Assembly (NCBI GenBank): GCA_964602665.1
Contig: CAZRRH010000003.1
Span: 2,963 to 66,962 of the forward strand
Source of the DNA: an uncultured Candidatus Saccharibacteria bacterium
Lineage (GTDB): Bacteria > Patescibacteriota > Dojkabacteria > SC72 > WJKH01
Reading direction: 5' to 3'
Length of the DNA stretch: 64,000 nucleotides
Shown here: positions 6,836 through 33,929 of the stretch, in pieces
How positions within the stretch are numbered: the stretch's first letter is position 1
Layout: every line of letters begins with the position of its first letter
The notes under the pieces: generated by a model
What the model saw: only the letters and a program-made list of their open reading frames with translations
Told to the model about the DNA's origin: nothing
Database searches by the model: none
Program-made: the position numbers and the translations under genes

Positions 6836-6844
6836 TGGTATAAT
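6836..6844 (+). promoter_or_regulatory. extended -10 element (TGGTATAAT) 6 nt upstream of the first pilin-like gene. A leaderless start is likely.
   Basis: TGGTATAAT at 6836..6844 with the ATG at 6851 and no Shine-Dalgarno room. The identical TGGTATAAT box recurs at 22479 and 39105. Confidence 0.45.
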
Positions 6845-6850
6845 AATGAG

Positions 6851-7276
6851 ATGCATAAGAAGATCGCTAAATATATTTTGACATTTTTTGCGTTGATAGC
6901 AATAACAAGTGCATATTTACCTACAAGAACTTATGCAGAGGATGGTATTGGTACTCAAATAGGGAATCAGTTACAAGATTTGCTTGACCCTGAGGATATT
7001 AACTCTGATCCGGGTAACGAAAACGAGGCTCCAGAAGCCCTTGTACAAATGGTGCAATCGATTGTCCAAATATCTCTGATGGTAGCGACCTTAGCTGTGA
7101 TAATTCTTTTTATAGTTGTGGCATATAATATGGTGACAAGCCAGGGTAATCCCGAGAAGCTTAATGAAGCAAAAGAGATCGCTGTTAATGCTATAATAGG
7201 TTTTATGATGATAGCAATGGCATCAACTATTTTATGGATTTTGGCTAATCTTGTCGGTATCGATAAATTATTTTAA
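6851..7276 (+). CDS. VirB2/TrbC-like pilin paralogue 1 (signal peptide plus two-helix hydrophobic hairpin)
   Basis: 141 aa. Cleavable signal peptide (…TRTYA|ED), acidic variable region, then TM-loop-TM (…IILFIVVAYNMVTSQGNPEKLNEAK…IGFMMIAMASTILWIL). Shares its architecture with the five genes that follow. Confidence 0.5.
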   Translation: MHKKIAKYILTFFALIAITSAYLPTRTYAEDGIGTQIGNQLQDLLDPEDINSDPGNENEAPEALVQMVQSIVQISLMVATLAVIILFIVVAYNMVTSQGNPEKLNEAKEIAVNAIIGFMMIAMASTILWILANLVGIDKLF

Positions 7277-7284
7277 AGTTAAAT

Positions 7285-31100: not shown

Positions 31101-31559
31101 TCTTGTGGTCAAGGGACTGGAGGAGGCGGGAGTTATTCTCATTCTAAAGATGGCGGATATTCTGCAATTGACTTTACTCCTGAAAATCATACAATGCTTG
31201 CGCCTGCTGATGGCGTTGTTACATACTTTAGTCCGACTAATCGATGTCTTGCAGAAGGGGCAGCAAGTGATGCCAATTATGGTGGACATATACAATTTAA
31301 AACAAATGAGGGAGATATACTTGTTATGTATCATGCAAAACTTCCACCTGGGGTAAGAGTTGGTGACAGAGTATCTATGGGCGATCCACTTGCAATTTCT
31401 CAGAGTGACATAAATAGCGTTGGAAACCCATGCTGGACGGGTGAGCATATTCATCTAGAGATAAAAGCCCCCAATAACTTTAGATATAACTGTATTGAGA
31501 GTTGGGTTTATAGTAAATGTAGTAATTTTAGCACATGTTCATATAGTGAATGTAATTAA
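28161..31559 (+). CDS. giant (1132 aa) protein with central Gly-rich TM segments and C-terminal M23/LytM-family peptidoglycan endopeptidase domain
   Basis: M23 signature at the C-terminus: …HSKDGGYSAIDF… (HxxxD-type), …ILVMYHAKL…, …GEHIHLEIK (HxH). Hydrophobic Gly-rich helices lie around residues 820-910. The N-terminal ~800 aa has no recognisable family. Confidence 0.6.
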   Translation: MPKQQQQYQGALDSIYNVIFAQAQKPPQKKKGGDWTKGIPGDPLSYAVTDMLAKPWMFWGNAVKEVADELHGNVKLTNFWNFGMGFTDVYKSNIGEQKGGRFKTIDTRTGSARLKARDVLSKKFWSNPVGFWEKTVTEAYEAYRSERKKYALTGLIGGAADAMLVGYGYAKKIGLKGNEAWNYAMASGYFTEGANYYTRRLKLKAENVALSLDRAHVTSVAQAETYSRIIAQSLKEADLGGYYTADSVSIPPAKIVNFRTALKANLVSAGIAAPNTLLDDITAKYEHEMGIYKSVLSEDPLAASREAEVPSDEKIFDVPFTPGALRETIIRNREKKIILLREELAATNPANTVRVDRLKREIELNVLQREFSDALQRIKGDNDDYSFNFDVALKRVENIYSSVADPVLRAQVGTLLGDIGREKGKIMRKRYGNTYRFAKMAGTEYSVGAGSWRDPISSFPTNITQKHAREAYKKELEAKVLLLRDRINTERGLATPNERAINILEAEIAGELSTISRIKDIRGVGARAFMGNMLASYNYVKALTSGKIFTVAGFLRGTAFWDNGIYSPGSRGGLRWWDSNTLSNSKRYDNIVMPREKSEIGYLRFLTDLYYVRPGSIMNTLFFNGEGYAYMALRRKEKLLGKMTKVIGSRFFAGDMSADDSVASRLLRVVRARYPLAPAYPVTDVPFIRDIESLYGFLGNNTHILLEMLGHSAGNNPLQLDGSILRDIEFLKANVIHPARLAEWTSKLKGMDKLIAMADKVNGNWFNTFIKASIKKVFGDSGVFYSAANRGIRPWLASRTYDGLLFASKLPIFSKYLKGELWEAAVKKFAFKKITAEGLVSVGLRAILDGIGMGAGVAGGPPGWLVFVVTQVVFLFSDKIVKVLIKAGTGLVRGIIAIGVLAIFMVIGCGGMLSMLLDPFSDVDPNEAVSASAVGGIDEWYIHQTFYSGEEGTYEKTFRGNEQAIPAYFDNYSCIVNSPTSCGQGTGGGGSYSHSKDGGYSAIDFTPENHTMLAPADGVVTYFSPTNRCLAEGAASDANYGGHIQFKTNEGDILVMYHAKLPPGVRVGDRVSMGDPLAISQSDINSVGNPCWTGEHIHLEIKAPNNFRYNCIESWVYSKCSNFSTCSYSECN

Positions 31560-32658
31560 TAAAATATTAAAAAACGATCTTGTGCTTATATGGGTGATTG
31601 CATTTGTCTTGGCGATTGCACTTTTGCTCGTGACATTAATTGCAAATCGAGACAGGGATAGCCTAGAATCTGACACTAAAATTCCTAATGTTAAAAAAGA
31701 AAAAGACGAGGTGACTGATTTCAACTACAATTATGAGGAGGAAGATCAATTTTCTAATATTCAAATGAGTACAGATCTTGAGGACAAGCTTAAAAAAGAA
31801 GCAGATGGTTTATCGGGAAAGATTAGTATATATAAGGCAAACATTACTGATCACACAACTTCTGTACAAAAATTTGTTACCGATACACAAAAAACTTTTA
31901 CTTATAAAGATAGCGTGTATTATGGAGTATGGGAAAAAGATAGTGATCGTGTGATATATGATAAGATAGAAGATAGTATTTTCTTTGAGTTTAAAAACGG
32001 CGTTAAGATGAATACAGGCGTCGTTATATCAGAAAGCTCAAGACAAGAAGAGCTACAAAATTATTTCGAGCAACTTGTCAAAAAATATTTTGGAGAGGAG
32101 ATACAATTTACTCAGTATAAATATTCTTCAGGCCCGGAGATTAGATTCGCTGAGGAAGTGATGACTCATAAAATGTCTGCTGTTAGATTGATAGACTCAA
32201 CTTATCCTTTGTATAACAGCGACAGCGTATTTGGTGACAATTATCTGCTTCTTGATTATCAGGGAAATCTTATTGGAGGAAGAATAATGCTTGCTTCATT
32301 ACAAATTGATAAAACTTACAATAATTATTTTGTTGTAGCACCCGATGAACTGGATAATTATATTAGGAATTCAGAGTACCCAAAAGTTCAAGTAATAAAA
32401 AATTATAGAATGCTTGTCGGCGATAATGAAAGCATAAAAACATCGCAGGATTATCTTGATTATGCAAGGGAAGGTGAATATAAAATGACAATTCCTTCAA
32501 AATGTAATGTTGAAGATGGGAATATTGGATACTATTATGATCAATCTTACGATATTTTTCCTATATACAAATTGGATTGTACAGGAAATACTTTATATCA
32601 AGGTGCAACCTATGAAGTCAAAAGCATCCTTTTCCTAAAAGCAATTCTCCCCAAATAA
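31546..32658 (+). CDS. hypothetical bitopic membrane protein (N-terminal TM, ~340-aa extracytoplasmic domain). The role of a VirB8/TcpC-like assembly factor is possible but unproven.
   Basis: The ORF-track frame opens at TTG 31495, which is 65 nt inside the previous gene. An in-frame GTG at 31546 directly precedes the TM helix LVLIWVIAFVLAIALLLVTLIAN. Start is uncertain. No catalytic motifs. Confidence 0.4.
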   Translation: MNVINKILKNDLVLIWVIAFVLAIALLLVTLIANRDRDSLESDTKIPNVKKEKDEVTDFNYNYEEEDQFSNIQMSTDLEDKLKKEADGLSGKISIYKANITDHTTSVQKFVTDTQKTFTYKDSVYYGVWEKDSDRVIYDKIEDSIFFEFKNGVKMNTGVVISESSRQEELQNYFEQLVKKYFGEEIQFTQYKYSSGPEIRFAEEVMTHKMSAVRLIDSTYPLYNSDSVFGDNYLLLDYQGNLIGGRIMLASLQIDKTYNNYFVVAPDELDNYIRNSEYPKVQVIKNYRMLVGDNESIKTSQDYLDYAREGEYKMTIPSKCNVEDGNIGYYYDQSYDIFPIYKLDCTGNTLYQGATYEVKSILFLKAILPK

Positions 32659-32726
32659 TGAAATTTTAATTAAAAACAGAAACGATTTTTGTTGATTTAT
32701 TTTTTGTCTTGATGATATAATGTAAT

Positions 32727-33929
32727 GTGAAAAAAATCCTTTTTATTGCAATCATAATTTTTATATCTGTTACTCCGATTAGTGCCGAAGTAATAAGTCG
32801 CGAGTCCATTGGTATTGATGAGACGCTTGCGCAAAAGGATATTGCTAATTACCTTGAGCCCGAGCGAATAGTTTTAACGCAAATAAGTACAGATGCAGTT
32901 GAGTTAGGATCTGATAGCAAAGTATGGGCATCTCAGATTTACTATTATTACATCACAAGATTAGGATTCGTTGATATCCCTTATAACTATCTTCTATCTG
33001 AAGACGGCAAACTTTATCAAGGCAGATCAGGATATATTGGTATCGTACCCGAACTTGATAGTCCTGACAGCGTGATTCTGATTGGTTATATGTCAAATAA
33101 TCCGAAACTATCGAATTTAGCTCGACAAGAGCTTGGCGTCTTTATAGAAAGTATTGGTGGATATTATGATATAAGCAAGAAAAGTATTAGTGTCGCTTCT
33201 ATTCAATTTATTGAGCCAAAAGAAGGCACAAGCGGTAAACTTAAACTCGTGAATGATAGCTCTTCGACATTTGCAAGAGATGTCGCGGAAACTGTAGAGT
33301 TAATGTTTGCAGATATTTCATACGATGAAATCGATAGAAATTATTCTGCAGCTGTTACAGTTTCTGATTATGAAAAGAAAGCTAAGTCAGGGGGAATTGT
33401 TGAGATAAACGCTCAAATTAAAAATAATGGCGAAGCTCCTTTGTATTTAGAAAACTCTCCGCTTTTTGTTAGGACTCTAGATGGTAAAGACTCTGAATTT
33501 AGTATTAATGGAGAGTGGGGTTCGGCTTCTGTCGCAACAATTATTGATGACGGATATATATTGCCAGGACAGAGCAAAGAATTCAAGTTTTCACTTTATG
33601 CGGGCGTTTTCCCGACAGAGGAGGGAAAACCTCATGAACAAAGTTTTATACTTGGTGTCAGGAGGAAGGAGAAAACATATCTTGTTAATGATAGTGGATT
33701 TTCTGTCTCATTTGAGGTTGAAAAGGGAGAGTTTGATATTATTAAGATAACAGAAACAGGCGTTGGATACATAAATATGCGTGCTTGTCCTCAGAGAAAC
33801 TGTGATATCGTGAGTACAATTCCTGTCGGAGAGCGAGTTATTGCAAAAGAGTATGGCGATAGCTGGATAAAAGTCCAATATCAAGAGAAAGAAGGATGGA
33901 TAGTCTCTTCATATCATAAAAAATTATAA
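32727..33929 (+). CDS. secreted cell-wall-binding protein with PGRP/Amidase_2-like domain and C-terminal bacterial SH3 (SH3b) domain
   Basis: 400 aa, GTG start. Signal peptide (…PISA|EV). …DIPYNYLLSEDGKLYQGRSGYIGIVPELDSPDSVILIGYMSN resembles the Amidase_2/PGRP core, but the Zn-ligand His residues are not evident. The C-terminus GYINMRACPQRNCDIVSTIPVGERVIAKEYGDSWIKVQYQEKEGWIVSSY is SH3b-like. Extended -10 TGATATAAT at 32713..32721. Confidence 0.45.
   Translation: MKKILFIAIIIFISVTPISAEVISRESIGIDETLAQKDIANYLEPERIVLTQISTDAVELGSDSKVWASQIYYYYITRLGFVDIPYNYLLSEDGKLYQGRSGYIGIVPELDSPDSVILIGYMSNNPKLSNLARQELGVFIESIGGYYDISKKSISVASIQFIEPKEGTSGKLKLVNDSSSTFARDVAETVELMFADISYDEIDRNYSAAVTVSDYEKKAKSGGIVEINAQIKNNGEAPLYLENSPLFVRTLDGKDSEFSINGEWGSASVATIIDDGYILPGQSKEFKFSLYAGVFPTEEGKPHEQSFILGVRRKEKTYLVNDSGFSVSFEVEKGEFDIIKITETGVGYINMRACPQRNCDIVSTIPVGERVIAKEYGDSWIKVQYQEKEGWIVSSYHKKL

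Follow-up and report, generated by a model that had tools for sequence, protein, structure and literature searches.

Comparison with described type IV secretion systems

Chromosomal type IV secretion systems (T4SSs) that lack a relaxase and carry VirB2 arrays of 2-11 genes were described in Patescibacteria in 2023 and 2025 (PMC10633639, PMC12102498, PMC12857230). In Southlakia the pilin array is essential (PMC10633639), as are peptidase and lysozyme genes located just downstream of virB4, according to the passage of PMC12102498 that cites PMC10633639. The same kind of system was found across the phylum (PMC12102498), the preprint version of that survey names Dojkabacteria among the lineages that possess it, and tubular structures that may derive from a T4SS are described at a Patescibacteria-host interface in a 2026 preprint (10.64898/2026.06.21.733656). 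Here we analysed a 64,000-nucleotide stretch of DNA (contig CAZRRH010000003.1; hereafter the window), in which two gene blocks and a distant gene for the ATPase VirB4 very probably constitute dispersed modules of a lineage-specific, relaxase-less, pilus-forming chromosomal T4SS of Dojkabacteria (WS6), as described for Patescibacteria. Dojkabacteria are members of the Patescibacteria (candidate phyla radiation, CPR) and belong to the GTDB class Microgenomatia; the bacterium studied here is tiny and probably depends on a host. The relatives of the VirB6-like proteins of the window carry the names Candidatus Dojkabacteria or candidate division WS6.

The locus shares with the Patescibacteria T4SS (Southlakia epibionticum SEML1_0006-0019; Quinonero-Coronel et al., 2025) an MPF_FATA-like VirB4, an array of divergent VirB2-like pilins (six here, as in Southlakia), a VirB6-like protein, wall hydrolases of the peptidase type, a chromosomal location and the absence of a relaxase (PMC10633639, PMC12102498, PMC12857230). 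It differs in that its genes are distributed over at least three modules, separated by 11-36 kb, rather than gathered in one cluster, and in that the VirB6-like gene is duplicated and its products are missed by VirB6, PrgH and TrbL profiles. Furthermore, the fixed partners of the VirB6-like proteins, comprising a giant protein with an M23 peptidase domain, a bitopic protein, a PGRP-like/SH3b (PGRP-SH3) protein and a fibronectin type III (Fn3) protein, are not described for Southlakia or in the survey. The original prediction considered this not to be a textbook T4SS layout. As relaxase-less systems with VirB2 arrays have already been described (PMC10633639, PMC12102498, PMC12857230), the layout is no longer unusual for the phylum and its novelty was overrated; the locus extends a known system rather than revealing a new one.

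T4SSs used for conjugation by Gram-positive bacteria (MPF_FATA: pCF10 Prg, pIP501 Tra, CTn2/CD1110 and ICEBs1) likewise have a CD1110-type VirB4, a PrgI-like gene beside VirB4 (here seen in relatives), a large membrane-anchored wall hydrolase (PrgK, TraG or CwlT, to which the giant protein is analogous) and no outer-membrane core. In contrast to these systems, the window lacks a relaxase and a coupling protein, is not located on a mobile element and encodes VirB2-type pilins, which are lacking there, and in its hydrolase family an 850-aa N-terminal domain precedes an M23, CHAP or HExxH head. Compared with R388 TrwI/VirB6 and Legionella DotA, the VirB6-like proteins show 9% sequence identity and possess an N-terminal Cys-rich helical outer domain; the envelope is monoderm, and no VirB5-like partner was identified here. 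The split T4SSs of Rickettsiales (rvh/vir islands) are also chromosomal, dispersed and not conjugative and include multiple VirB6 and VirB2 paralogues (PMC2653234, PMC3556328), but they are P-type systems of diderm cells that include VirB7-B11 and VirD4, and homology is limited to shared core families.

A large part of the diversity among uncultured bacteria is made up by Patescibacteria, and no T4SS before theirs had been shown to be required for the growth of its own carrier. In the published survey, VirB6 and VirB8 were barely found in Microgenomatia and few components were located near virB4; the locus described here shows where such parts sit in Dojkabacteria. Beyond the literature consulted, it provides a candidate VirB6 family, supported by structure, for the reportedly VirB6-scarce class Microgenomatia, a set of conserved VirB6-like partners with a fixed position 5' of pcrA and the ribosomal operon, evidence for modular exchange of hydrolase domains, and a suggestive, unproven similarity between the first VirB6-like hairpin and the pilin hairpin. 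The VirB6 candidate family, its partner set and the modular hydrolase domains are concrete targets for annotation, cryo-electron tomography and genetics.

Gene layout, pilin array and VirB4

The window has a guanine-plus-cytosine content of ~35%, which ranges evenly between 0.32 and 0.39, and most genes are encoded on the + strand. Block 1 consists of six tandem pilin genes (6851-9183) followed by a SpoIID-domain gene, while block 2 (19616-33929) encodes in order a 106-aa protein, a DsbA-like oxidoreductase (- strand), the Fn3 protein, a 718-aa Cys-rich protein, the VirB6-like pair and the giant, bitopic and PGRP-SH3 proteins. Every element listed in the original prediction was recovered where it had been placed, and the interruption of the blocks by the housekeeping genes RSH, recG, spoU, rsmD and pyrG was likewise borne out, with RSH backed by Pfam, rsmD and pyrG by the syntenic relative L166, and recG and spoU by reading of their translations; a DUF4153 protein gene also lies between the blocks. 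The features of block 1 and the VirB4 gene are as follows.

6851..7276, + strand: VirB2-like T4SS pilin 1 (141 aa), signal peptide and two-helix hairpin; PF18895 33.7 bits, pilin profile E 7e-30
7285..7587, + strand: VirB2-like T4SS pilin 2 (100 aa), PF18895 27.0 bits, matched by the pilin profile
7621..8025, + strand: VirB2-like T4SS pilin 3 (134 aa), PF18895 38 bits, weak TrbC match
8052..8429, + strand: VirB2-like T4SS pilin 4 (125 aa), PF18895 51.8 bits; NCBIfam Mbov_0395 pilin-like conjugal transfer protein 37.7 bits
8429..8878, + strand: VirB2-like T4SS pilin 5 (149 aa), PF18895 39.1 bits, 58% identity to pilin 4
8902..9183, + strand: VirB2-like T4SS pilin 6 (93 aa), without signal peptide, PF18895 32.2 bits
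9205..11013, + strand: secreted or anchored SpoIID-domain protein (602 aa), PF08486 69.4 bits, N-terminal hydrophobic segment
63194..64000, - strand: VirB4 ATPase, C-terminal 268 aa; NCBIfam conju_CD1110 E 1.2e-52, P-loop_TraG 68.5 bits; runs off the window end

All six pilins exceed the Pfam cut-off of PF18895 (T4SS_pilin; 27-52 bits), and a pilin profile hidden Markov model (HMM) recovered exactly those six among all window open reading frames (ORFs) of at least 40 aa, which bears out the prediction of six VirB2/TrbC-like pilins. Every pilin contains a two-helix VirB2-type hairpin and several possess an N-terminal hydrophobic, signal-like segment. Identities to pilin 4 range from 23% to 58%, and a similar within-array divergence has been published for Patescibacteria arrays (PMC12102498). 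Promoter-like sites are located directly 5' of pilin 1 (6816-6844; 10/12, TG) and 5' of pilin 3 (7584-7612; 11/12). Type IV pilus identity (T4P or type II secretion system-like) was considered and rejected, as the small proteins match T4SS_pilin/TrbC and no type IV prepilin family, PilB, PilC or PilD match was obtained among the scanned ORFs. The N-terminal half of the SpoIID protein yields weak coiled-coil-type matches; from its position next to the pilin array in the window, this protein is a candidate wall-opening enzyme for the pilus.

The fragment at 63.2-64.0 kb, previously noted as VirB4-like, belongs according to its CD1110-family match to the MPF_FATA (CD1110) type. In its closest relative (L081, 74% identity), VirB4 (811 aa) forms a three-gene unit with a PrgI-family protein (385 aa) and a 213-aa protein, situated among housekeeping genes. 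The order PrgI, small gene, VirB4 is found in the relatives L081, L131 and L143. Because virB4 runs off the window, the PrgI/VirB3-like and the small protein are known from relatives only. The window virB4 is abutted by adjacent queA and tgt genes. In three Dojkabacteria genomes (L070, L072 and L080; ~7000-15800 each), a set of VirB6-like, giant and bitopic genes is located between queA and tgt, and no VirB4 was found within 5 kb past tgt in these loci.

VirB6-like proteins

Block 2 encodes two adjacent polytopic membrane proteins, which had been predicted to be VirB6/TrbL-like.

24655..26589, + strand: VirB6-like polytopic protein, copy a (644 aa), paralogue of copy b, with a long acidic insert in the outer domain
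26590..28152, + strand: VirB6-like polytopic protein, copy b (520 aa), paralogue of copy a

The two copies are confirmed paralogues that share 49% identity in the membrane core and 26% in the Cys-rich N-terminal outer domain, contain 6-8 hydrophobic segments, and belong to a family whose HMM matches copy a at E 2.5e-156. This family comprises 4,836 representatives of 50%-identity clusters at E <=0.001. Most Dojkabacteria genomes contain a single VirB6-like gene, and the duplication is common to the window and its closer relative L166. The best structural matches of the polytopic protein are VirB6 and DotA. The fold of the pair is accordingly taken to be VirB6/DotA-like. Membership of TrbL/VirB6 at the sequence level is not demonstrated: Pfam scans of VirB6-like family members gave sporadic weak TrbL and TrbC matches only, and the family profile had zero matches among PDB sequences. 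According to the 2025 survey, Microgenomatia contain few VirB6 homologues, a finding put down there to extreme divergence (PMC12102498).

In the VirB6-like proteins, the first membrane hairpin (IIGGFMIMFRNKIGGQ...TIPN) can be aligned with the hairpin of the VirB2-like pilins. It is encoded at 27286-27495 (copy b residues 233-302) and at 25618-25848 (copy a). Family-against-family comparison with hhalign gave a probability of 27% and an E-value of 6.6e-4, and a weak Pfam TrbC match was present in 10 of 114 scanned VirB6-like family members. The resemblance of the two hairpin sequences is suggestive; homology is unproven and is not claimed here.

Giant hydrolase, bitopic and PGRP-SH3 proteins

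The VirB6-like pair is followed by three genes.

28161..31559, + strand: giant hydrolase (1132 aa), C-terminal M23 peptidase domain (GEHIHLE)
31546..32658, + strand: bitopic protein (370 aa), N-terminal membrane helix and ~320-aa outer domain
32727..33929, + strand: secreted PGRP-like/Ig-like/SH3b protein (400 aa), C-terminal SH3_3 domain

The giant protein lacks a signal peptide and consists of an N-terminal region of ~850 aa without detectable homologue, hydrophobic segments at residues 857-917 and the C-terminal domain. The latter scores 25.9 bits against Pfam M23, under the cut-off of 28.7; the family profile matches solved M23 peptidases (E 1.4e-9, 8s3m), and 10 of 28 family members pass Pfam M23. 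The HxH motif is present (GEHIHLE) and the first M23 motif is atypically spaced. The giant is thus classified as an M23-domain protein with HxH motif and a predicted peptidase.

Although the mechanical ORF of the bitopic protein starts at TTG 31495, a database protein with 95% identity (P0118, 370 aa) points to ATG 31546. From this start the gene overlaps the end of the giant gene by 14 nt, which suggests translational coupling. When the protein was examined as a candidate for the VirB8-like (NTF2-like) component, the family profile found nothing in PDB or Pfam, and an AlphaFold2 (AF2) model computed from a four-sequence alignment (mean predicted local confidence, pLDDT, 35.7) gave no usable fold. 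The bitopic protein of the original prediction is present as described, and in the relative L134 a family member lies two genes after virB4.

The family profile of the 400-aa protein matches PGRPs at E 7e-5 over residues ~44-135, covering the DIxYxxLxxxxGxxYEGR core, and SH3b domains at E 1e-9, with weak Amidase_2 matches in 8 of 24 members. Catalysis by an Amidase_2 fold involves Zn-binding His/His/Cys residues. The family alignment contains no invariant His, from which a wall-binding, non-catalytic role is inferred; judged by these residues, the PGRP-SH3 protein is probably a peptidoglycan binder rather than an enzyme. Of the at least three peptidoglycan-remodelling enzymes previously proposed, the SpoIID and M23 domains are supported, and the PGRP-like/SH3b protein is probably a binder.

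Conservation and linkage in relatives

Species-level Dojkabacteria genome loci around the VirB6-like gene, 80 in number, were compared, and partner profiles were built from them. The loci share the order 106-aa protein, Fn3, VirB6-like, giant, bitopic, PGRP-SH3, pcrA, SLT-like (- strand), tetratricopeptide repeat (TPR) protein, fusA and ribosomal operon. The giant gene comes next after the VirB6-like gene in 78 of the 80 loci, the bitopic family is present in 56-57 and PGRP-SH3 in 52, and 5' of the VirB6-like gene Fn3 occurs in 63 loci, preceded in 59 by a tblastn match to the 106-aa protein. The SLT-like and TPR proteins were identified between pcrA and fusA in 38 and 33 loci, respectively. 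A set of 80 metagenomic loci centred on VirB4 contained no pilin or VirB6-like gene at distances of up to 10 kb from it. WS6 GW2011_GWF2_39_15 (L004, L082), the only genome that places both on one contig, contains the VirB6-like cluster and VirB4 ~48 kb apart. Together with the lack of linkage within 10 kb in both sets of 80 loci, this indicates that dispersal is the rule in Dojkabacteria.

Linkage was found in more distant Patescibacteria. In two loci (L161 and L162), an array of 7-8 homologues of the window pilin genes is followed by a giant protein of 1159-1243 aa and a member of the VirB6-like family. A single 20-kb locus (L163/L164) combines a pilin array, a VirB6-like protein, an M23 protein, PrgI and a TraC-like protein, in the order pilin array, 1450-aa NAGPA-domain protein, VirB6-like, 1080-aa gene (opposite strand), DnaJ, 984-aa protein with C-terminal M23, 334-aa protein, PrgI and, at the contig end, the TraC-like gene. 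In L134, the gene directly after virB4 encodes a 773-aa protein that ends in an M23 domain (40 bits), and the next is a full-length bitopic-family gene (E 7.7e-43); L143 encodes PrgI, a 233-aa gene and VirB4, with a giant-family member (E 4.5e-10; Pfam M23 53 bits) and a 335-aa gene ~4 kb downstream. The order in L131 is a 1139-aa gene, a 136-aa ORF similar to the N-terminus of the bitopic protein, PrgI, a 384-aa gene, VirB4 and DnaA; an apparent bitopic-profile match to PrgI of this locus was rejected, as the match corresponds to the 136-aa ORF 5' of PrgI.

The original prediction would have failed if the families of the two blocks were never co-conserved with VirB4 or were assigned to unrelated families. 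Co-linkage was found in L163/L164, L134 and L143, and HMM and structure searches placed the proteins in T4SS or wall-remodelling families (PF18895, VirB6/DotA fold, CD1110 VirB4). The evidence for membership in the system is strong for the pilins and the VirB6-like, giant M23 and bitopic proteins; the Fn3, 106-aa and PGRP-SH3 proteins are assigned by synteny only, and the SpoIID protein only by its place beside the pilin array in the window.

Several observations weigh against the interpretation of the blocks and VirB4 as one T4SS. Neither VirB4 nor pilins occur within 10 kb of the VirB6-like cluster in any of the 80 Dojkabacteria loci, so that the function as one machine in this lineage is derived from homology and from linkage in other lineages. 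At the level of sequence, a VirB6 identity is weakly supported, as searches of the VirB6-like pair against Pfam and NCBIfam gave nothing above noise and the Foldseek match has an E-value of 0.07. The 984-aa protein of L163 and the M23 protein of L134 do not match the Dojkabacteria giant profile significantly and share with it the M23 domain and the position only. In the loci of relatives, no SpoIID gene adjoined a VirB6-like or VirB4 gene; SpoIID, DsbA and the HExxH protein are without support from distant relatives, and DsbA, the HExxH protein and DUF4153 are common to the window and L166 only. Finally, no VirB3-like or TrsD-like genes are visible in the window.

In L161-L163, an ECF (extracytoplasmic function)-type sigma factor gene is encoded divergently from the pilin array (L161:2044-2583, L162:1216-1764, L163:1857-2423; all - strand) and may be a dedicated regulator of the array. 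No such gene adjoins the pilin array of the window.

Proposed mechanism and alternative explanations

In the T4SS proposed here, a PrgI/VirB3-like protein, a small protein and VirB4 would form the membrane ATPase module, with VirB4 encoded in the window and the other two deduced from relatives. The two VirB6-like proteins would serve as membrane platform or channel, a role suggested for their fold by R388 TrwI and Legionella DotA. The six divergent VirB2-like pilins would be inserted into the membrane, extracted by VirB4 at the VirB6-like platform and polymerised into a tube or pilus, as suggested by the R388 and Dot/Icm structures and by work on Patescibacteria. The giant M23 protein, anchored beside the platform, and the SpoIID protein, the HExxH protein and possibly the SLT-like protein could, with their respective domains, cut the cell's own and/or the host's peptidoglycan, while the PGRP-SH3 and Fn3 proteins, as their domains suggest, may bind wall or glycan. 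DsbA could introduce disulfides into the exported domains that are rich in Cys.

No relaxase, coupling protein or integrase was detected among the scanned window ORFs, in agreement with the original prediction, and the window contains no tRNA. A mobile element, either an integrative and conjugative element (ICE) or a plasmid, was rejected, since its defining features (relaxase, type IV coupling protein and integrase among the scanned ORFs, and tRNA) were searched for and not found, the base composition is even, and the VirB6-like protein and pilin 4 have no plasmid homologues. Given the lack of a relaxase and coupling protein in the window and the fixed chromosomal position, the most likely role of the machine is in host contact and in the transfer of macromolecules, not in conjugation. 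The earlier preference for a chromosomally fixed host-interaction or surface machine over a conjugative element is likewise supported by the gene order conserved in 80 genomes.

A more far-reaching interpretation is tentative, and we consider it rather doubtful. It holds that the VirB6-like family together with the giant (M23, CHAP or HExxH heads), bitopic and PGRP-SH3 proteins would be the missing envelope-spanning T4SS core of Microgenomatia-type Patescibacteria, that the VirB6-like hairpin would be homologous to the pilin hairpin, so that the platform templates the pilus by pilin mimicry, and that swappable heads, together with the divergence of pilins and outer domains, would decide which walls of host cells can be breached.

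It is improbable that the 19.6-33.9 kb cluster represents an apparatus for wall growth or division that is independent of VirB4, with the pilins and VirB4 belonging to a separate system or being relics. Such an apparatus would account for the absence of the cluster from the neighbourhood of VirB4 and pilins in the 80 Dojkabacteria loci and for its location amid core genes (pcrA, ribosomal operon), and wall housekeeping typically involves M23, SpoIID, SLT and PGRP/SH3 domains. However, the best structural matches of the polytopic protein are specifically VirB6 and DotA, its family follows pilin arrays in L161-L163 and shares the L163 locus with PrgI and a TraC-like gene, and the bitopic family follows virB4 in L134.

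A function as DNA uptake or release system like Helicobacter ComB or the T4SS of the Neisseria gonococcal genetic island (GGI), instead of a host-contact or protein-transfer device, appears very improbable. Patescibacteria lack nucleotide synthesis, T4SSs without relaxase or coupling protein are able to import DNA, and helicase genes flank both blocks (pcrA, and a UvrD/PD-(D/E)XK protein at 3697-6819), but these helicases are housekeeping genes, and the many wall hydrolases and binding proteins fit cell-cell contact better. In addition, competence of Southlakia requires type IV pili as well as ComEC, and cells without comEC remain viable while the T4SS is essential, according to the summary in PMC12857230.

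Least probable of all are decaying remnants of a rearranged integrated conjugative element: although VirB4 is closest to conjugative MPF_FATA models, the parts are scattered and the system of the phylum is considered a descendant of monoderm conjugation machinery (PMC12102498), all genes are intact, their order is kept across 80 species-level genomes, the VirB6-like family is represented by thousands of clusters, integrase, relaxase, tRNA, composition shift and plasmid homologues are all absent, and the Saccharibacteria counterpart is essential (PMC10633639).

Exchange of wall-hydrolase domains and other neighbouring genes

The remaining genes associated with block 2 encode exported or membrane-anchored proteins.

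19616..19936, + strand: single-pass membrane protein (106 aa), weak DUF948 match; first gene of the conserved cluster
19947..20774, - strand: membrane-anchored DsbA-like oxidoreductase, CPYC; Thioredoxin_4 59 bits, DSBA 33 bits
20831..22474, + strand: anchored Fn3 surface protein, with a (PT)n linker between two Fn3-like domains; Pur_ac_phosph_N/fn3 match
22495..24651, + strand: secreted Cys-rich protein (718 aa), 20 Cys, signal-like N-terminus, HEAMH motif
36837..37436, - strand: small secreted SLT/transglycosylase-like protein beyond pcrA; Transglycosylas 26.2 bits, SLT 21.1 bits

The Cys-rich secreted HExxH protein noted earlier consists of a ~500-aa carrier domain and a C-terminal HExxH domain and has no match in Pfam or NCBIfam. 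Its residues 24-530 show 39% identity to the N-terminal part of its syntenic counterpart in L166, a 765-aa protein (L166:7684-9981) that ends in Amidase_2 in place of the HExxH domain. Similarly, two members of the giant family bear CHAP in place of M23, and the giant of L007 (L007:6845-9529) ends in an HExxH domain resembling the C-terminus of the 718-aa protein. The occurrence of the same carrier with HExxH or Amidase_2, and of the giant with M23, CHAP or HExxH, indicates that wall-hydrolase domains are exchanged on conserved carriers. These modular domains are possible determinants of host specificity, and the 718-aa protein is a candidate wall-directed enzyme or effector.

DsbA and the Fn3/PT-linker surface protein are both present as predicted and supported by Pfam; among the compared loci, DsbA occurs at the same place in L166 only. 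The SLT-like protein, whose membership in the system is uncertain, and a 478-aa TPR protein with N-terminal anchor are encoded between pcrA and fusA (36837-39008).

Just 5' of block 2, the window encodes a 701-aa polytopic DUF4153 protein (17456-19561; 201 bits). It was rejected as a component, being found in the close relative L166 and not in the other 80 loci, and, because of this conservation in L166 only, it is probably outside the system. Furthermore, a 378-aa protein encoded on the - strand at 57226-58362 contains an N-terminal ChlI/ComM-type domain only (61 bits), with no AAA+ module detected, and may be a truncated or divergent ComM/YifB-like protein.

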